DNA of 64,000 bases from Enterobacteria phage vB_EcoM_IME339, in sequence record MH051915. The stretch is one strand, 5' to 3'. Shown piece by piece: positions 15,372 through 63,104 of the stretch. The position numbers and the translations under genes are program-made. The notes beneath the pieces were generated by a model. That model saw nothing but the letters and a program-made list of their open reading frames with translations. It did no database searches and had not been told where the DNA came from. Within the stretch, counting starts at the first letter, position 1; each line of letters starts with the position of its first letter.

Positions 15372-16951
15372 TCTTTTACCTTAATTATGTAGTTTAAAGA
15401 AATGTTCCATGGACGTGTTTCATTTCCAATTAATTCAGGACGATTTAATGTATATTTGGAATTTCGTTGTGATGCTGGGTCAATTTCATATCCATCATTG
15501 GTGAAGTATGAACGGTTATCCCAGTCAAGTCCTTTACGTGTACCAACAAAATTTGATCTACGGGTATTACCGAATGCTCCAGAATCATCATGCTCACCAA
15601 ATCCGCCAGCGTGTTTATGATAAGACATCTGCTGTTTTTGTACTTCACCAACATATCCACCGGTACAACCTACACCTAATCTAGGCTTACCAAATTGGTC
15701 ATTACCATTAACGTTTGGATTTGTTAAGTGAGAGCCACGACCAGAGCCACGAACAAAAAGACCACGCATATCAGGTAATCCAGGATTTGATGAGCTTCCG
15801 CCGTATCTTGTTCCAATTCTAGAAGCGTATAACGGACAATCTGACGCAGAAACAGTTCCACCATGACAGAAGCGCCAAGCATCACTAGGAAGACTATCTG
15901 CCGCCCACATCATAATAGCTCCGACAGGAATAGTTCTATCTATTTCATTCTGTGTTACAACACGCTTACCTTGAATATAACCACCGGTCATGTTAACTGT
16001 TCCGGTAATATTTGCTCCGCCTGAAGCTATTGTGAGCGTATTATTAATGCGAAGTGTTCCATTAATCGTTTGACCACCTCTTTGGTGGATAACGTCAGCA
16101 TTCCAAGCTAATGCCGATGAAGCATCGCCTCCACTCTGTGAGCCGGCGGTTGTAGTTAATTTAACTACGCCTCTCATTGACGTTGTAGAACCACGACCAT
16201 TAAGAGTTGCACCAGTAACCGCAACAGAAGCATTATTCGAGTTAACTTCTGATTGTGTTCCTAATTTAATTACGCCCTTATATTCTTCTGTAGCAGACGA
16301 ATTCATAAACGTATAAGGAGAAATTGCATAGCCTTCTCTTAAGGTTCCTTGACGAACTTGAGCTACTGTTGCTAATTGAACAACGCCTTGGTCAGATTCA
16401 GTAGCGGTGGTTTCAGAAGGAGCAATTTGCGCAATTAATTTAATAGCTAACTGCTGTGTTTTTAATGGAGTCATTGCAGTAGTATCATCTGCTCCAGCTA
16501 ATGCTTGCGGTAGAGATGAAATTTTAATAACTCCATTTGATGATTCAGTTGAAACGCGAGTTTCAAAGGCATTATTAAGGGCAACAGTAAATTTAGCAGG
16601 AGTTATAGAAGATTCATTATTAACTCCAGCAATTGCTTCATCATCTGTAGAATATCGTGTTAATCCATAAACGGTTTCAGTTGCGTTTGGGTAAGATAAT
16701 CTTGTTGCCAATGTTGCTGGTGTAACTGCTTTGGTATTATCAGTTCCATCGATAACTTCCTGTTCAGTAGCAAGAAATAAAATTCCCTTTGTTGTTGATG
16801 ATGCGTCAGGAACTCCATTTACACCAGCAGGAGAAATGGCTGCTATAGCAGCCTGAACATCAGTAATCTCTGCTGGAAAATTTGTACCAGTTGGATCAAA
16901 TTTTACATAGCGAGATTCATTAGAAACGTGTTGGTATGTATTATTACTCAT
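15368..16951 (-). CDS. 12: Short tail fibre protein gp12
   Basis: 527 aa; position between wac and 11. Confidence 0.88.
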
Positions 16952-34367: not shown

Positions 34368-34440
34368 TGGGAATTAGCCAAGTTGGTAAGGCACTGGATT
34401 TTGATTCCAGGATGCAAAGGTTCGAGTCCTTTATTCCCAG
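34368..34440 (+). tRNA. tRNA-Gln (anticodon UUG)
   Basis: Hand-folded cloverleaf: acceptor TGGGAAT/ATTCCCA, anticodon loop TTTTGAT, T-loop GGTTCGAGTCC; no encoded CCA. Confidence 0.85.
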
Positions 34441-34441
34441 C

Positions 34442-34528
34442 GCGAGAATGGTCAAATTGGTAAAGGCACAGCACTTAAAATGCTGCGGAATGATTTCCTT
34501 GTGGGTTCGAGTCCCACTTCTCGCACCA
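34442..34528 (+). tRNA. tRNA-Leu (anticodon UAA)
   Basis: Acceptor GCGAGAA/TTCTCGC, anticodon loop CTTAAAA, long variable arm, encoded CCA. Confidence 0.85.
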
Positions 34529-34533
34529 AATTT

Positions 34534-34607
<74 letters not shown>

Positions 34608-34617
34608 ATTTAATTTA

Positions 34618-34691
34618 CTCCGTGTAGCTCAGTTTGGTAGAGCGCCTGATTTGGGATCAGGAGGTCCAAGGTTCAAATCCTTGTATGGAGA
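34618..34691 (+). tRNA. tRNA-Pro (anticodon UGG)
   Basis: Anticodon loop TTTGGGA, T-arm CAAGG-TTCAAAT-CCTTG; acceptor stem has two G-U pairs, so boundaries are +/-2 nt. Confidence 0.75.
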
Positions 34692-34693
34692 CT

Positions 34694-34783
34694 GGAGGCG
34701 TGGCAGAGTGGTTTAATGCACCGGTCTTGAAAACCGGCAGTCGCTCCGGCGACTCATAGGTTCAAATCCTATCGCCTCCGCCA
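34694..34783 (+). tRNA. tRNA-Ser (anticodon UGA)
   Basis: Acceptor GGAGGCG/CGCCTCC, anticodon loop CTTGAAA, long variable arm, encoded CCA. Confidence 0.85.
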
Positions 34784-34788
34784 GTTTT

Positions 34789-34864
34789 GCTGATTTAGCT
34801 CAGTAGGTAGAGCAACTCACTTGTAATGAGAAGGTCGGCGGTTCGATTCCGTCAATCAGCACCA
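34789..34864 (+). tRNA. tRNA-Thr (anticodon UGU)
   Basis: Acceptor GCTGATT/AATCAGC, anticodon loop CTTGTAA, encoded CCA. Confidence 0.85.
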
Positions 34865-34865
34865 A

Positions 34866-34940
34866 GGCCCTGTAGCTGGAAGGTTCAAGCAAGCGACTCA
34901 TAATCGCCAGATGGTGGTTCAATTCCACCCAGGGCCACCA
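34866..34940 (+). tRNA. tRNA-Ile (anticodon CAU, presumably lysidine-modified to read AUA)
   Basis: Acceptor GGCCCTG/CAGGGCC, anticodon loop CTCATAA, encoded CCA; T4 tRNA-Ile has a CAU anticodon. Confidence 0.8.
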
Positions 34941-34953
34941 AATTAAGAATTAA

Positions 34954-35040
34954 GGGGAGTTATCCCGTAGAGGTAGCGGTGTGGACTGTAAATTCATTGT
35001 CATTGCGACTCGGGTGGTTCGACTCCCATCGGTCCCCCCC
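34954..35040 (+). ncRNA. Candidate small structured RNA between tRNA-Ile and tRNA-Arg (possibly stable-RNA species 1/2-like or a degenerate tRNA)
   Basis: GGGGAGT at the 5' end can pair with ACTCCC near the 3' end; contains GGTTCGACTCC T-loop-like motif and a C7 run; no canonical cloverleaf could be folded by hand. Confidence 0.25.
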
Positions 35041-35045
35041 AATTA

Positions 35046-35121
35046 CGGGGCATAGCTCAGAAGGAAGAGCAAGGACCTTCTAAGTCCTAGGTCGTAGGTT
35101 CGATCCCTACTGCCTCGACCA
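35046..35121 (+). tRNA. tRNA-Arg (anticodon UCU)
   Basis: Acceptor CGGGGCA/TGCCTCG (one G-U), anticodon loop CTTCTAA, T-arm GTAGG-TTCGATC-CCTAC, encoded CCA. Confidence 0.8.
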
Positions 35122-40842: not shown

Positions 40843-41259
40843 ATGACTCGTATTAATTTGACTTTAGTATCTGAACTTGCTGATCAACATTTAATCGCAG
40901 AATACCGTGAACTGCCGCGTGTTTTTGGTATAGTTCGTAAACATGTTGCAAATGGTAAACGGGTTAAAGATTTTAAAATATCTTCCGAGTTTATTTTAGG
41001 TTCTGGTCATGTTACGTTCTTTTATGATAAGTTAGAATTTTTGCGAAAGCGTCAATCAGACATTATAACGGAATGCTTAAAACGTGGGTTTAGTATAAAA
41101 GATACTGAAGTTCCTGACATCAGCGATATTCCAGCAGAATGGAAAAATGATTATAATCCATGCAAATCAGCTATTAAGTTGAGTCAACAACGACTCGATG
41201 AAAAAATTTTAATGAAGCCACACTGGTATAAATACTACGGTAAAAATATTTACATTTAA
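40843..41259 (+). CDS. denV: Endonuclease V (pyrimidine dimer DNA glycosylase/AP lyase)
   Basis: 138 aa; [17 protein letters not shown]...YKYYGK matches T4 DenV. Confidence 0.93.
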
Positions 41260-41268
41260 AGGAAACAC

Positions 41269-41742
41269 ATGAAAACATATCAAGAATTTATCACTGAAGC
41301 AGCTATTAATTCTCAAATTATTGCTGAATCTTTTACTGATCTTTTGAAATTTAAAAAAGGTCAAAAAATCACTGCTGTATTGGATGATGGTACAGAAGTT
41401 GAGATGGATGTACAGGGATATAATTATGCAGTAGATGGAAAACTGTATAATAAATCTCACGCTAAATTTGATTCATTTGACGACTTTGTTAATACAGTTG
41501 AAGATGAAAAAACTCGTAGATCAATTTCAACTGGCGATGCTAAGGTTCTTATGGCGCACGGCCATGAACGTATCCGCGCCAAACAGAATAAAATGGGTGA
41601 AGATAATTTTGCATTAGTTGGTTATCAATCTGGTAAGCAAACTTATGGCTATCAGCGTACTGCTACCATGTATAACAAAAATGGTAAAATCGCTTTCGTG
41701 AATAGCAAAGGCTCTATTCAGTACGTCAAATCATTCAAATAA
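41269..41742 (+). CDS. Internal-protein-like capsid-targeted protein, function unknown
   Basis: 157 aa; N-terminus MKTYQEFITE|A is a near-consensus T4 capsid targeting sequence; sits after denV rather than between e and denV as T4 ipII/ipIII do. Confidence 0.75.
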   Translation: MKTYQEFITEAAINSQIIAESFTDLLKFKKGQKITAVLDDGTEVEMDVQGYNYAVDGKLYNKSHAKFDSFDDFVNTVEDEKTRRSISTGDAKVLMAHGHERIRAKQNKMGEDNFALVGYQSGKQTYGYQRTATMYNKNGKIAFVNSKGSIQYVKSFK

Positions 41743-41847: not shown

Positions 41848-42435
41848 ATGGACAATTCATGCGCCATGGAATGGCCCAAATTTAGAGAGAATAAAATGAG
41901 AACATTTTTAACTGGTCCTTATCTATCCCTGATGAATGCTTTTACACACCATTCTGATGCTAGAGTAGAAGAAATTTGTAAAAACGATTATATCCCACCA
42001 TTTGAAGACTTACTCAAACAGTATTGCACACTTCGACTAGATGGTGGACGTCAATCTGGTAAATCAACTGCTGTGACTAACTTTGCTGCTAATTGGCTGT
42101 ATGACGGTGGAACAGTTATTGTTCTTTCTAATACTTCAGCTTACGCTAAAATTTCTGCGGGCCACATTAAAAAAGAATTTTCGCGTTATTCTAATGATGA
42201 TATTCGATTCCGCTTATTTACTGATTCTGTGCGCAGTTTTATTGGCAATAAAGGAAGCAAGTTCAGGGGTTTATTGCTTTCGCGAATTTTGTATATAATT
42301 GATGAGCCTGTTAAAGCTCCCGATATGGATAAAATTTATGATATTCATATTGACACTGTACATTACTGTTGCAATAGCAAGTGTTGCATTGGTGGTATTA
42401 CTCGCCCGCAGTTTTTCGTAATTGGAATGCAATGA
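41848..42435 (+). CDS. Hypothetical protein (vs.8-like by position)
   Basis: 195 aa ORF; start uncertain (ATG 41848 or ATG 41896). Confidence 0.5.
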   Translation: MDNSCAMEWPKFRENKMRTFLTGPYLSLMNAFTHHSDARVEEICKNDYIPPFEDLLKQYCTLRLDGGRQSGKSTAVTNFAANWLYDGGTVIVLSNTSAYAKISAGHIKKEFSRYSNDDIRFRLFTDSVRSFIGNKGSKFRGLLLSRILYIIDEPVKAPDMDKIYDIHIDTVHYCCNSKCCIGGITRPQFFVIGMQ

Positions 42436-42761
42436 TGACAGATACGCAACTTTTCGAATATCTTTATTTTTCGCCAAAAACTATTAAAAATAAATTGGTG
42501 AATCATTTTGAAATTTTGGCAAATAACAACGTCTTGAGCGAATTTTATCCTAAGCAATACAAATTACAAAAAGGTGTATTCAAAGGATGCAGAGTTTTGT
42601 GTACTGCTCCTAATGCAAGATTAATGAATAAAATTCCATATTTTACCATGGAATTTATTGATGGACCTTTTAAAGGACTAATCACCCAAAGTTTAATGGC
42701 ATATGATTCTGAGCCATTTTTAATTAAAGAACAATCTTGGATAAATTTATTTTCTAATTGA
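42432..42761 (+). CDS. Hypothetical protein
   Basis: Track start 42381 is GTG; moved to ATG 42432 (MMTDTQ), overlapping the upstream stop. Confidence 0.5.
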
Positions 42762-42769
42762 GAGGTTAT

Positions 42770-43132
42770 ATGAAAGCATATCAAATTCTTGAAGGCACGC
42801 ATAAAGGTACTATTTATTTTGAAGATGGTATTCAAGCGCGAATTATTGTTTCTAAAACCTTTAAAGAGGACTCTTTTGTAGACCCAGAAATTTTCTATGG
42901 TTTGCATGCCCGTGAAATTGAAATTGAAACACAACCTACAGTTAAAATTGAAGGTGGTCAACACCTGAACGTTAACGTTCTGCGTCGTGAAACTCTGGAA
43001 GATGCAGTTAAGCATCCGGAAAAATATCCGCAGCTGACCATCCGTGTATCCGGTTATGCAGTTCGCTTTAACTCTCTGACTCCGGAACAGCAACGCGACG
43101 TTATTGCTCGTACCTTTACTGAGAGTTTGTAA
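42770..43132 (+). CDS. Autonomous glycyl radical cofactor (GrcA/YfiD-like)
   Basis: Track start 42758 is TTG; moved to ATG 42770; 120 aa; C-terminal ~58 aa ([59 protein letters not shown]) match E. coli GrcA as I recall it, with the glycyl radical signature RVSGY. Confidence 0.9.
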
Positions 43133-43353
43133 TGGCAAAGATAATTATTGAAGGTTCTGAAGATGTGTTAAATGCTTTCGCCGAATGGTTTAGTAATTCA
43201 GGCGAACAGCAATTTAATGAAGCGTGGAACATGGGTGATATTAGTGGAATTTATCCTACGACAGAAATTTCTGTTCAAGGATATGGAATTCATGAACCTA
43301 TTCGTTTAGTTGAATATGATTTATGTACTGGTGAGGAAGTCAAATATGATTGA
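43132..43353 (+). CDS. Hypothetical protein
   Basis: 73 aa; start overlaps upstream stop (TAATG). Confidence 0.5.
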   Translation: MAKIIIEGSEDVLNAFAEWFSNSGEQQFNEAWNMGDISGIYPTTEISVQGYGIHEPIRLVEYDLCTGEEVKYD

Positions 43354-43949: not shown

Positions 43950-44411
43950 ATGACTATCAACACAGAAGTTTTTATCCGTCGAAATAAGCTCCGTCGTCAC
44001 TTTGAGTCGGAGTTTCGTCAAATTAACAATGAGATTCGTGAGGCATCAAAAGCAGCAGGGGTCTCATCGTTTCATCTAAAATATTCTCAACATCTTCTTG
44101 ATCGTGCAATTCAACGGGAGATTGATGAGACATATGTTTTTGAATTATTCCACAAAATAAAAGACCATGTTTTAGAAGTTAATGAATTCCTGAGTATGCC
44201 TCCACGCCCTGATATTGACGAAGATTTTATTGATGGTGTTGAATATCGTCCTGGGCGTTTAGAAATCACAGATGGAAATCTTTGGCTTGGATTTACAGTT
44301 TGTAAACCTAATGCGAAGTTCAAAGACCCGTCGCTTCAATGCAGGATGGCAATTATCAACAGTCGTCGTTTACCGGGAAAGGCTTCTAAGGCAGTAATTA
44401 AAACTCAATGA
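43950..44411 (+). CDS. regB: Sequence-specific endoribonuclease RegB
   Basis: 153 aa; MTINTEVFIRRNKLRRHFESEF N-terminus and length match T4 RegB. Confidence 0.85.
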   Translation: MTINTEVFIRRNKLRRHFESEFRQINNEIREASKAAGVSSFHLKYSQHLLDRAIQREIDETYVFELFHKIKDHVLEVNEFLSMPPRPDIDEDFIDGVEYRPGRLEITDGNLWLGFTVCKPNAKFKDPSLQCRMAIINSRRLPGKASKAVIKTQ

Positions 44412-51628: not shown

Positions 51629-51654
51629 GGGAGCCTTCGGGCTCCCTTTTTTAT
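51629..51654 (+). terminator. Rho-independent terminator
   Basis: GGGAGCC-TTCG-GGCTCCC hairpin followed by TTTTTTATTT. Confidence 0.8.
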
Positions 51655-51659
51655 TTCAA

Positions 51660-51712
51660 AATTTTTTCACAAAACGGTTTACAAGCATAAAGCTTTATGG
51701 TACTATACAACT
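51660..51712 (+). promoter_or_regulatory. T4 early promoter
   Basis: GTTTAC -35 and TGGTACTATAC -10; near-identical to the block at 36505. Confidence 0.7.
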
Positions 51713-59410: not shown

Positions 59411-59731
59411 ATGAATATTGAAAATAAATTAGATGTTGATGCAGTTCTGAGTGAAATCATCGAAGACCATGATGCATTTTCAGAAAATTATGATTTCGAT
59501 TTTTCGGATTATCTTAAACCTATCGAAATAGAAGACTGGGTGCAAGATGGTAAATGCCAATATCGCCAGTGTGTTTATTTTAGTCCAAAACACAATGTAC
59601 ATGTTTCCGTAAATGAAACTCGCTCAGGTTCTTATCATTCTGACTGGTATTATGCAGTTCCGACTGTTGAACTAGTCGAGCCCCGTGAACGTGTAGTAAC
59701 TCAGACAGTACGAGAATGGATTACGCTATAA
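59411..59731 (+). CDS. Hypothetical protein
   Basis: 106 aa; GGTGAAAAATG RBS. Confidence 0.5.
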   Translation: MNIENKLDVDAVLSEIIEDHDAFSENYDFDFSDYLKPIEIEDWVQDGKCQYRQCVYFSPKHNVHVSVNETRSGSYHSDWYYAVPTVELVEPRERVVTQTVREWITL

Positions 59732-59854
59732 AACCTTGGTGGGCGGCTAGATGGGAAACTGTAGAGCCAGAGCCGGAAGAACCGGTTTACACTGATGAAG
59801 AAACAGTATATAATGAACCGACGATAAATGACATAATTGATATGGAGATGGGAC

Positions 59855-60349: not shown

Positions 60350-60823
60350 ATGTTATTGACTGGCAAATTATACAAAGAAGAAAAACAGAAATTTTATAAT
60401 GCACAAAACGGTAAATGCTTAATTTGCCAACGAGAACTAAATCCTGATGTTCAAGCTAATCACCTCGACCATGACCACGAATTAAATGGACCAAAAGCAG
60501 GAAAGGTGCGTGGATTGCTCTGTAATCTTTGCAATGCAGCGGAAGGTCAAATGAAGCATAAATTTAATCGTTCTGGCTTAAAGGGACAAGGTGTTGATTA
60601 TCTTGAATGGTTAGAAAATTTACTTACTTATTTAAAATCCGATTACACCCAAAATAATATTCACCCTAACTTCGTTGGAGATAAATCAAAGGAATTTTCT
60701 CGTTTAGGAAAAGAGGAAATGATGGCTGAGATGCTTCAAAGAGGATTTGAATATAATGAATCTGACACTAAAACACAATTAATAGCTTCATTTAAGAAGC
60801 AGCTTAGAAAGAGTTTAAAATGA
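60350..60823 (+). CDS. 49: Endonuclease VII (Holliday junction resolvase)
   Basis: 157 aa; MLLTGKLYKEEKQKFYNAQNGKCLICQRELNPDVQANHLDHDHE with zinc-binding cysteines; matches T4 gp49. Confidence 0.95.
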   Translation: MLLTGKLYKEEKQKFYNAQNGKCLICQRELNPDVQANHLDHDHELNGPKAGKVRGLLCNLCNAAEGQMKHKFNRSGLKGQGVDYLEWLENLLTYLKSDYTQNNIHPNFVGDKSKEFSRLGKEEMMAEMLQRGFEYNESDTKTQLIASFKKQLRKSLK

Positions 60824-62637
60824 CAATTGAAAAAGAAATTGAAGGATTGATTCATAAAACTAATAAAGACCTTTTGAACGAGAATGCTAATAAAGATTCT
60901 CGTGTTTTTCCAACTCAACGGGACCTTATGGCTGGTATTGTGTCTAAACACATTGCCAAAAATATGGTCCCGTCTTTTATTATGAAAGCGCATGAAAGCG
61001 GAATTATCCATTTCCATGATATTGATTATTCCCCTGCTCTTCCATTTACTAATTGCTGTTTAGTAGATTTAAAAGGAATGCTTGAAAACGGATTTAAGCT
61101 CGGTAATGCGCAGATTGAAACTCCTAAATCAATCGGCGTTGCTACTGCAATTATGGCACAAATTACTGCACAGGTTGCTTCCCATCAATATGGCGGAACG
61201 ACTTTTGCGAATGTAGATAAAGTACTTTCTCCTTATGTTAAACGCACCTATGCAAAACATATTGAGGATGCAGAAAAATGGCAAATCGCTGATGCGTTGA
61301 ATTATGCCCAATCTAAAACAGAAAAAGACGTATACGATGCATTCCAAGCTTATGAATATGAAGTAAATACTCTCTTTAGTTCAAATGGACAAACGCCTTT
61401 TGTAACAATTACATTTGGTACGGGAACTGACTGGACTGAACGAATGATTCAGAAAGCAATTCTGAAAAATCGTATTAAAGGCCTTGGCCGTGATGGAATA
61501 ACTCCTATTTTCCCTAAGCTTGTTATGTTCGTTGAAGAGGGTGTCAATCTTTATAAAGATGATCCGAACTATGATATTAAGCAGCTTGCGTTAGAATGTG
61601 CAAGCAAAAGAATGTATCCTGATATTATTTCAGCTAAGAACAATAAAGCTATCACCGGTTCATCTATTCCTGTTTCTCCAATGGGTTGCCGTAGTTTCTT
61701 AAGCGTATGGAAAGATTCGACTGGTAATGAAATTCTTGATGGACGTAATAATCTCGGTGTTGTAACACTGAATCTTCCTCGCATTGCGTTAGATTCTTAT
61801 ATTGGAACACAATTCAATGAACAGAAATTTGCCGAATTGTTCAATGAACGAATGGATTTGTGTTTTGAAGCTTTGATGTGTAGAATTAGTTCCTTAAAAG
61901 GAGTTAAAGCGACCGTTGCTCCTATTCTTTACCAAGAAGGTGCATTCGGGGTTCGTCTTAAACCTGATGACGACATAATTGAGTTATTTAAAAACGGTAG
62001 AAGTTCAGTGTCCCTAGGATACATTGGTATTCACGAATTGAATATTCTTGTCGGTCGTGATATTGGACAGGAAATTTTGACTAAAATGAATGCTCGTCTT
62101 AAACGGTGGACTGAAAGAACCGGTTTTGCTTTTAGCTTGTATTCTACTCCTGCTGAAAACCTGTGCTATCGCTTCTGTAAACTTGATACTGAAAAATATG
62201 GAAGTGTAAAAGATGTTACTGATAAAGGCTGGTACACTAATAGTTTCCATGTTTCAGTAGAAGAAAATATTACTCCGTTTGAAAAGATTTCTCGCGAAGC
62301 CCCATATCATTTCATTGCGACAGGTGGTCACATTTCTTATGTTGAACTTCCTGATATGAAAAATAACTTAAAAGGTCTTGAGGCTGTATGGGATTATGCT
62401 GCACAACATTTAGATTATTTTGGTGTTAACATGCCAGTAGATAAATGTTTTACATGTGGAAGTACCCATGAAATGACTCCTACTGAAAACGGATTTGTTT
62501 GTTCTATTTGTGGAGAAACTGATCCTAAAAAGATGAATACGATAAGAAGAACTTGTGGTTATTTGGGAAATCCGAACGAACGCGGATTTAATCTCGGCAA
62601 AAATAAAGAAATCATGCATAGGGTTAAACACCAATGA
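60820..62637 (+). CDS. nrdD: Anaerobic ribonucleoside-triphosphate reductase NrdD
   Basis: 605 aa continuous ORF; C-terminal zinc ribbon CFTCGSTHE...CSICG and glycyl radical motif RTCGYLG; no intron interruption. Confidence 0.95.
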   Translation: MTIEKEIEGLIHKTNKDLLNENANKDSRVFPTQRDLMAGIVSKHIAKNMVPSFIMKAHESGIIHFHDIDYSPALPFTNCCLVDLKGMLENGFKLGNAQIETPKSIGVATAIMAQITAQVASHQYGGTTFANVDKVLSPYVKRTYAKHIEDAEKWQIADALNYAQSKTEKDVYDAFQAYEYEVNTLFSSNGQTPFVTITFGTGTDWTERMIQKAILKNRIKGLGRDGITPIFPKLVMFVEEGVNLYKDDPNYDIKQLALECASKRMYPDIISAKNNKAITGSSIPVSPMGCRSFLSVWKDSTGNEILDGRNNLGVVTLNLPRIALDSYIGTQFNEQKFAELFNERMDLCFEALMCRISSLKGVKATVAPILYQEGAFGVRLKPDDDIIELFKNGRSSVSLGYIGIHELNILVGRDIGQEILTKMNARLKRWTERTGFAFSLYSTPAENLCYRFCKLDTEKYGSVKDVTDKGWYTNSFHVSVEENITPFEKISREAPYHFIATGGHISYVELPDMKNNLKGLEAVWDYAAQHLDYFGVNMPVDKCFTCGSTHEMTPTENGFVCSICGETDPKKMNTIRRTCGYLGNPNERGFNLGKNKEIMHRVKHQ

Positions 62638-63104
62638 ATTATGATAGATTTTATCCTTGCGATTTTGTGAATGGCCCTGGATGCAGGGTCGTTCTTTTCG
62701 TTACAGGTTGTTTGCATAAATGCGAAGGGTGTTATAATAAATCAACATGGAATGCTAGAAATGGCGTTCCATTCACTGGTGAAACACTGGAACAATTAAT
62801 TGAATGTTTGAATAATGATTATATAGAAGGATTAACTATAACTGGAGGAGACCCTCTCTATCCTGATAACCGAGATGTTATTCACTCTGTGGTTCAAACA
62901 GTAAAAAATCTTTATCCAAATAAAAGCATTTGGTTGTGGACAGGATATAAATTTGAAGATATTAAACAACTAGAAATGCTTAAATATGTTGATGTTATTA
63001 TTGATGGGAAGTATGAGAAAAATCTTCCTACCAAAAAGCTGTGGCGAGGATCAGATAATCAGCGACTTTGGTCAAATACCGATGGGGTGTGGAAACATGA
63101 TTAA
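62634..63104 (+). CDS. nrdG: Anaerobic RNR activating enzyme NrdG (radical SAM)
   Basis: 156 aa; cysteine cluster CLHKCEGCYN; ATGA overlap with nrdD. Confidence 0.9.
   Translation: MNYDRFYPCDFVNGPGCRVVLFVTGCLHKCEGCYNKSTWNARNGVPFTGETLEQLIECLNNDYIEGLTITGGDPLYPDNRDVIHSVVQTVKNLYPNKSIWLWTGYKFEDIKQLEMLKYVDVIIDGKYEKNLPTKKLWRGSDNQRLWSNTDGVWKHD

Follow-up and report, generated by a model that had tools for sequence, protein, structure and literature searches.

An internal tract of Escherichia coli grcA DNA in the vs.6 gene of Enterobacteria phage vB_EcoM_IME339 and its relatives

The closest described relatives of the gene considered here, the vs.6 ortholog at positions 42770-43132 of a 64,000-nucleotide (nt) stretch of Enterobacteria phage vB_EcoM_IME339 (sequence record MH051915; this whole stretch is the window referred to below), are the stand-alone glycyl radical protein GrcA (YfiD) of Escherichia coli and the phage T4 protein Y06I, which, from the UniProt naming, we take to be the product of T4 gene vs.6. 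YfiD and Y06I both receive a radical from the activating enzyme of pyruvate formate-lyase (PFL), bind O2-cleaved PFL and restore its activity, as found by Wagner et al. (2001; summarised in PMC8683613). Apart from the work of Wagner et al., vs.6 appears in the literature searched only through a match to the Pfam family Gly_radical (PMC1524935), and no description of a nucleotide-level mosaic or of host specificity of vs.6 was found there, an earlier mention being possible.

The gene of vB_EcoM_IME339 has the same position (between vs.7 and vs.5, within the segment from denV to regB) and the same length (363 nt) as T4 vs.6, and 118 of its 120 residues agree with T4 Vs.6 (NP_049730.1, in RefSeq 'autonomous glycyl radical cofactor GrcA'), Thr54 and Arg73 standing in place of Pro54 and His73. 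We consider it probable, at roughly 85%, that the DNA encoding the radical domain of this vs.6 ortholog was replaced by that of E. coli grcA through homologous recombination and that the same happened independently in Klebsiella phages. Neither the gene nor its family and biochemical role is new; the value of the locus lies in its evolutionary signal, a host-specific pattern of conversion which apparently has not been described.

An E. coli-type patch inside the phage gene

Residues 60-120 of the phage protein are 100% identical to residues 67-127 of E. coli GrcA, including the radical motif RVSGY, and the DNA that encodes them (42948-43132, 185 nt) shows 97.3% identity to grcA in all 5,426 of 5,426 complete E. 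coli genomes. The longest mismatch-free run in pairwise alignment extends over 145 nt (42948-43092), beyond which the last 40 nt hold five synonymous differences from E. coli; two substitutions inside the tract, at 43093 and 43105, are synonymous and private to this phage, and the 3' end differs from E. coli at 43123, 43126 and 43127, sites at which related phages vary too. Since the last 10 nt of the gene (43123-43132) return to phage type, the host-like sequence forms an internal patch some 175 nt long. In a codon-aware alignment to E. coli grcA, 77 of 151 nt are identical in the upstream part as compared with 177 of 182 downstream, and the maximum chi-square breakpoint falls after nucleotide 178 of the gene (42947|42948; chi2 = 97.6, p<5e-4, 0 of 2,000 permutations), upstream of which the DNA identity to E. 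coli grcA is essentially at random level. A mosaic GrcA-like gene at this site, as an earlier reading of the letters (here the original prediction) had proposed, is confirmed as a 120-residue open reading frame (ORF) with this breakpoint, and the proposed C-terminal GrcA match with RVSGY holds as well; the extent given for it (~42955-43132, ~58 residues) was too short, the match starting at 42948 and covering 61 residues.

The boundary is quantitative in composition as well as in identity. The GC content rises from 0.333 in the 5' half to 0.475 in the tract and that of third codon positions (GC3) from 0.186 to 0.393, and no more than 1-2% of windows of this size within the ORFs of the stretch are as GC-rich; CTG accounts for five of six leucine codons in the tract, as against 41 of 655 in the plus-strand ORFs of the window, and CCG for all three proline codons, as against 30 of 241. 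More generally, CTG, CCG and CGT/CGC prevail in the tract and are minority codons elsewhere, so that both the AT-rich, phage-like N-terminal half and the switch to E. coli-style codons and higher GC that had been noticed by eye are now given in numbers. Other stretches with a GC content of at least 0.46 in 183-nt windows (1011-2453, 15711-16253 and 59601-59823) do not match E. coli DNA, and high GC alone is therefore no mark of host-derived DNA in this phage. When the whole window was compared by megablast with the 5,426 E. coli genomes, the grcA tract was the only segment matching the chromosome in all of them, which fits a conversion process in need of pre-existing homology, such as few other phage genes share with the host.

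Many enterobacterial GrcA proteins and several phage lineages share the 61 C-terminal residues without variation, so that synonymous sites provide a clean test of constraint, for which amino-acid-identical codons were compared between unconverted phage lineages and E. coli grcA. An RB16-like phage (L096) encodes exactly the same C-terminal residues, and phages RB43 and CC31 nearly the same ones; the amino-acid-identical codons that equal those of E. coli number 31 of 61 in the RB16-like phage, 31 of 59 in RB43 and 32 of 54 in CC31, and 55 of 60 in vB_EcoM_IME339. Phage lineages with the same amino acids are about 83% identical to host grcA at the nucleotide level, as compared with 97% here, an identity far exceeding that of an ancient homologue, as the original prediction implied. 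These synonymous sites indicate that protein constraint is not the cause of the host-like tract.

Against a donor panel of 80 grcA genes of different species, the 173-nt core of the tract (42950-43122) differs at two positions from E. coli, at four from a cryptic Escherichia lineage and at 15 from the best other genus, Citrobacter. Over 15 Tequatrovirus and Mosigvirus sequences the core differs at 0-4 of 173 positions from E. coli and at 12-18 from the nearest other genus, and these distances mark E. coli as the donor of the tract, rather than generic enterobacterial or convergent sequence. Queries with Salmonella grcA and Enterobacter grcA, used as negative controls, retrieved no phage record with at least 95% identity. 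The genes pflB and tdcE were considered as donors and rejected, the tract of phage phiC120 being about 79% identical to E. coli pflB and grcA being the best match in every E. coli genome. Three minor E. coli alleles (A213G, C222T with T246G, and T225A) were compared with the phages for signs of more than one E. coli donor; a single site is shared by a single phage (A213G, in L083), which is at chance level. Two observations identify the bacterium as the donor: E. coli grcA is 84.3% identical to its Salmonella ortholog in the 5' part and 83.2% in the tract, with both parts similarly diverged from the Klebsiella, Enterobacter and Citrobacter orthologs too, and the tract is a compositional outlier in the phage only.

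The resident phage homologue and its Klebsiella counterpart

The N-terminal half of the protein is itself related to GrcA. Profile comparison by hhalign of 57 phage and 67 bacterial N-termini, taken upstream of the EGGQHLN residues, gave a probability of 99.1% (E 1.8e-18, 60 of 60 columns, 28% identity), which indicates that this half is a diverged GrcA N-terminus and not an unrelated phage module. Full-length homologues lacking a host-like tract are encoded by CC31, RB16/RB43, RB49, Slopekvirus, T5-like phages and jumbo Erwinia phages, with radical-domain DNA about 72-84% identical to host genes and longest exact matches of 17-35 nt. The N-terminal homology and these unconverted full-length homologues together argue for gene conversion within a resident phage gene rather than for a fusion; of the recombinant gene originally envisaged, a phage N-terminus joined to a host-derived radical domain, the host-derived domain stands and the joining of unrelated parts does not.

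A tract at the same position of the gene is found in Jiaodavirus, a genus of Klebsiella phages, and its identity there amounts to 94.8-97.1% with grcA of K. pneumoniae, about 87% with that of E. coli and 90.8% with that of K. aerogenes. The core differs from K. pneumoniae at 5-10 of 173 positions (18 in PKO111) and the 186-nt tract from E. coli at about 22-28, and the GC content is about 0.37 before the step and about 0.55 after it; an identity of at least 95% to K. pneumoniae grcA is reached by 77 phage records. Phage KPV15 has 5 of 173 core differences, about 160 nt with a single difference and a junction one codon further 5', while in LilPanda the tract reaches further 3'. The different donor sequence shows that patching in Jiaodavirus is an independent event in which Klebsiella grcA was copied. 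Over five Jiaodavirus genomes, in which the junctions vary, synonymous codon divergence is higher in the tract (17.9%) than in the 5' half (9.2%), which could reflect several donors, or GC-rich DNA decaying faster where the genome is otherwise AT-rich.

Three observations on individual sequences may be added. The frame of KPV15 vs.6 is broken by a 1-nt deletion in a T run (at about 1640 in the locus), and an extra A truncates the annotated grcA of K. aerogenes NCTC10006, both probably sequencing errors. In L103, an oral-metagenome contig from IMG/VR of a phage type of about 150 kb, the GrcA homologue at 1501-1902 contains 75 nt with one difference from grcA of a Haemophilus sp. (L066), where sister contigs have 6-10 differences; this statistically modest signal suggests a third, shorter host-derived patch.

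Age of the tract and rival explanations

The tract is not private to vB_EcoM_IME339, but occurs in more than 500 Tequatrovirus and Mosigvirus records, T4 included. With E. coli grcA as query, 504 phage records reach at least 95% identity and 106 more 90-95%, the latter apparently mainly Mosigvirus, with alignments that extend 38-45 nt further upstream and hence score lower. T4 has one core difference (CGT to CAT, the codon of His73); in general the phage differences from the E. coli core are mostly private, with few shared by clades, such as C216T in three Mosigvirus genomes. Nucleotide identity between Tequatrovirus and Mosigvirus is 62-73% in flanking genes, 88% in the 5' half of vs.6 and 97-99% in the tract, and synonymous codon differences between the genera amount to 35-46%, 22% and 4.7%, respectively; within each genus they are 4.2-4.3% in the tract and 1-12% in flanking genes. 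As divergence of the tract between the genera equals that within them, the tract is much younger than the genus split and about as old as the sampled diversity within each genus. The claim of a recently host-derived domain is therefore to be qualified: the transfer is recent in that it took place after the split of Tequatrovirus and Mosigvirus and is no older than E. coli as a species, which does not make it recent in this isolate.

The phage would anciently have acquired a GrcA homologue which then diverged, and recombination with the host chromosome during infection would have copied about 175 nt of E. coli grcA into vs.6, likely as a patch-type gene conversion, seeded by the ~80-85% identical radical-domain DNA and displacing the glycyl radical domain that the phage had before. 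The patch is bounded on the 5' side immediately ahead of the EGGQHLN codons and on the 3' side within the final codons, and both edges coincide with the ends of usable homology between phage and host.

Several explanations compete with such a transfer. Purifying selection on the radical domain combined with adaptation to host codon usage might have driven the DNA to converge, a view to which the invariance of the 61 C-terminal residues across Enterobacteriaceae and many phages and the E. coli-preferred codons of the tract lend some colour; it is nevertheless very improbable, as the unconverted lineages whose amino acids are equal or almost equal agree with E. coli at no more than the 31/61, 31/59 and 32/54 codons given above, and these synonymous-site data rule it out. 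Moreover, the synonymous states are specific to E. coli (0-4 differences against 12-18 for Citrobacter and others), Klebsiella phages track those of K. pneumoniae instead, and the change occurs as a step at one nucleotide position with no gradient. A merger of host reads into the phage contig, given that chimeric assembly can yield a 185-nt stretch identical to the propagation host, can practically be dismissed, since the same in-frame junction recurs in more than 500 independently sequenced phage records, the T4 reference among them, and each phage carries private substitutions absent from all 5,426 E. coli genomes. Equally negligible is the reverse transfer, in which E. coli would have received the 3' part of its grcA from a T-even phage: the shared sequence as such would be accounted for, but the tract is of ordinary composition in E. 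coli and an outlier in GC and codon usage in the phage, it has diverged from the Salmonella, Klebsiella and Citrobacter orthologs to the same degree as the remainder of grcA, and Klebsiella phages match Klebsiella instead, by which this direction is contradicted.

As to the number of captures, one acquisition from E. coli in a single T-even lineage, with the patch or the whole gene then passing between Tequatrovirus and Mosigvirus when phages of both recombined in the same cell, is conceivable, if at less than even odds. In both genera the 5' junction is the same, with A at grcA position 199 and identity beginning at 200, most members of both have G at position 375, and the 5' half of the gene is better conserved between them than the flanking genes. 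On the other hand, coinciding junctions are expected at the edges of homology, and Jiaodavirus, with another donor, has the same 5' junction; not one derived substitution of the core tract is common to both genera; and the Mosigvirus RB69 reportedly excludes T4 and cannot recombine with it (PMC8056088; PMC6024577). Either each genus captured the tract separately or the tract crossed between them, and this barrier favours separate captures. A rather unlikely alternative is frequent, still ongoing conversion, by which the tract would be re-copied from the current host and evolve in concert with grcA. It would account for the star-like pattern of largely private substitutions centred on the E. 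coli sequence, for a synonymous divergence of the Tequatrovirus tract (4.2%) about half that of flanking genes (6.8-12.4%), and for the varying junctions (KPV15, LilPanda) and elevated tract divergence of Jiaodavirus, which fit different Klebsiella donors, although the latter divergence is also explicable as decay of GC-rich DNA under AT pressure. Derived substitutions inherited within clades, such as C216T, show that the tract is not erased every few generations; private phage variants are matched no better by any E. coli allele than by the major one, the lone shared polymorphism (A213G) being at chance level; and phages named after Yersinia or Salmonella retain E. coli- or Klebsiella-type tracts.

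Tentatively, and with the odds rather against than for it, the vs.6 tract may be regarded as a landing pad on which chromosomal DNA of the respective host arrives time and again in strictly lytic T-even-type phages with hydroxymethylcytosine (hmC) DNA, captured separately in Tequatrovirus, Mosigvirus and Jiaodavirus, possibly also as a short patch in the Haemophilus-type phage L103, and occasionally re-copied. If so, the tract would record the species of the recent natural host of a phage, the exactness of the donor sequence would offer a rare internal calibration of the pace of T-even evolution relative to that of the host, and whatever diversity has been sampled in this region of Tequatrovirus and Mosigvirus would post-date a capture from E. 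coli sensu stricto. Among phages whose names refer to Yersinia or Salmonella hosts, ZN18 and pSe_SNUABM_01 have E. coli-type tracts and PSE-D1 a K. pneumoniae-type tract (records including MN580668 and ON550260), and the tract may be more telling of the natural host than of the host of isolation.

A number of points weigh against replacement by recombination with the host chromosome. T4 degrades the host DNA and has hmC in its own, so that a copy-choice or heteroduplex route must be assumed. T4 is known to recombine with cytosine-containing homologous DNA in the cell, as in plasmid marker rescue. The recombination is deduced from sequence comparison and not from an event directly observed. The patch is absent from E. 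coli phages of other T4-like genera (the RB49, RB43 and RB16 types) and from T5-like phages, from which it follows that the process is rare or lineage-dependent. The amino acids of the patch are identical to those of some unconverted lineages (L094-L096); the patch therefore needs no benefit at the protein level and may be a neutral footprint of recombination rather than an adaptation. Finally, the protein does not reach the equivalog cut-off of 170 for GrcA in NCBIfam (154.6 bits with TIGR04365), a shortfall caused by the diverged N-terminal half. Of the genera with conversion, the two that infect E. coli, Tequatrovirus and Mosigvirus, have hmC-type DNA and the unconverted RB43 and RB49 canonical DNA; a tie between conversion and hmC DNA or degradation of host DNA is speculation, as CC31 is unconverted too and the sample is small.

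Locus, putative function and related systems

The features of the locus are listed in Table 1. With respect to family membership, TIGR04365 (spare_glycyl; IPR011140) is the best-scoring family by a wide margin, Pfam Gly_radical (PF01228) scores 67.2 bits (cut-off 22.2) over residues 60-101, and the YfiD structure in PDB entry 6owr is matched with an E value of 4.6e-42 in a phmmer alignment covering residues 22-120; by BLASTP, 74 of 100 positions are identical to E. coli GrcA overall. The vs.6 ortholog is 98.9% identical in DNA to that of Escherichia phage ECO4, 485 phage records, mainly of Tequatrovirus and for the remainder of Mosigvirus, are 95-99% identical to it, and 921 cover at least 80% of it.

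Table 1. Coordinates of the vs.6 ortholog, its parts and the anaerobic ribonucleotide reductase genes in the window
Feature	Position	Strand	Basis or remark
Shine-Dalgarno sequence GAGAGG	42760..42765	+	read from sequence, 4 nt 5' of ATG 42770
vs.6 / Y06I ortholog, 120-residue stand-alone glycyl radical protein (GrcA/YfiD homologue)	42770..43132	+	family scores, synteny
Phage-type 5' half, residues 1-59	42770..42947	+	AT-rich; anciently diverged from bacterial GrcA N-terminus
Host-derived tract (putative conversion), residues 60-117, radical glycine in RVSGY	42948..43122	+	E. coli grcA DNA
Phage-type 3' end of the vs.6 ortholog (last three codons and stop)	43123..43132	+	3 of 10 nt differ from E. 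coli
nrdD	60820..62637	+	Pfam NRDD 571 bits and Gly_radical; anaerobic ribonucleotide reductase
nrdG	62634..63104	+	Fer4_12 and Radical_SAM; activase of NrdD

The order of genes, denV (40843-41259), an internal-protein-like ORF, vs.8, vs.7, the vs.6 ortholog, vs.5, vs.4, vs.3, regB (43950-44411) and vs.1, is the same from denV to regB in T4 and ECO4, and the ATG at 42770 is the annotated start in these two phages as well. Together with the matches to ECO4, Tequatrovirus and Mosigvirus, this order identifies the source of the window as a T4-type coliphage. The TAA stop of the vs.6 ortholog overlaps the ATG of vs.5 (43132-43353) in TAATG, as read from the sequence, and its 3' end overlaps the ribosome-binding region of vs.5. 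A scan for promoters and terminators around the gene found sites in a number no higher than in shuffled sequence. On the minus strand, an antisense ORF of 197 codons (42545-43138) spans the entire vs.6, has no family-match context and is most simply a by-product of a complement poor in stops. The region of the internal protein and vs.8 departs from T4, likewise in ECO4: the ORF after denV (41269-41742) encodes 157 residues where T4 has ipII (100 residues) and ipIII, and the vs.8 homologue (41848-42435) 195 residues as compared with 219 in T4.

Elsewhere in the window, 52 nt at 51644-51695, with no annotation beneath, match the chromosome of one E. coli genome (NZ_CP040643.1) at 96%, the only chromosomal match besides the grcA tract. 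The phage tRNA cluster holds eight tRNAs at 34368-35121; within it, 34953-35042 matches a plasmid-borne E. coli 'tRNA-Tyr' at 86.7%; as ARAGORN called no tRNA between 34941 and 35045, this may be a tRNA-Tyr-like gene overlooked by the tRNA finder. Another 215 E. coli records gave a best match at 80-90% identity to the 25-kb query with the tRNA cluster.

In function, the phage protein is expected, by analogy, to act like T4 Y06I. The host activase PflA would place the radical on Gly95 of the phage protein, which would dock on oxygen-cleaved host pyruvate formate-lyase and restore its activity, and this rescue would sustain the production of acetyl-CoA and formate in micro-oxic conditions, for instance during infection in the gut with intrusion of oxygen. 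Formate is the reductant of class III ribonucleotide reductase, and since the phage encodes NrdD and NrdG, formate could feed the phage enzyme, a plausible tie to the anaerobic supply of deoxynucleotides. The two genes lie, as the original prediction had it, in the same genome, 18 kb downstream of the vs.6 ortholog, and megablast against the E. coli genomes found no E. coli-like DNA in their region. The predicted auxiliary role in anaerobic metabolism agrees with the biochemistry of the T4 protein, as described by Wagner et al. (2001; summarised in PMC8683613).

Beyond the single gene, the tract gives evidence of natural recombination between phage and host even though T4-type phages have modified cytosine and break down the DNA of the host, with each host species leaving its own signature, that of E. 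coli in E. coli phages and that of Klebsiella in Klebsiella phages; the frequency of such homologous recombination would be measurable with marked grcA alleles. With its donor sequence exactly known, the tract also provides an ancestral point of reference for dating the diversification of T-even phages. There is a practical side as well. A typing study of 2026 proposed grcA as a conserved Straboviridae tag gene for quantitative PCR (PMC12845203); as the E. coli chromosome contains the best-conserved part of this gene, namely the tract, host DNA may give false positives.

Among the known systems, T4 Vs.6 is nearest and carries the same E. coli-type tract. E. coli GrcA differs in that the N-terminal half of the phage protein is only about 28-35% identical to it and 7 residues shorter, and in that the phage version is encoded in an early-gene cluster of an AT-rich lytic phage. 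The C-terminal glycyl radical domain of PflB (PDB 1h16 and others) aligns at residues 697-759 with phage residues 58-120, RVSGY included (E 4.8e-26), and this aligned C-terminal piece is the part that the small protein is thought to replace. Mosaic auxiliary genes attributed to intragenic recombination between host and phage copies have been described in psbA and psbD of marine cyanophages (Sullivan et al., 2006, PMC1484495). The likeness is a qualitative one: these are likewise auxiliary metabolic genes of phages with internal sequence and composition resembling the host. Gene, host group and phage are others. Unlike in psbA and psbD, the patch of vs.6 is near-identical to a named host species, is fixed in two genera and is of Klebsiella type in Klebsiella phages.

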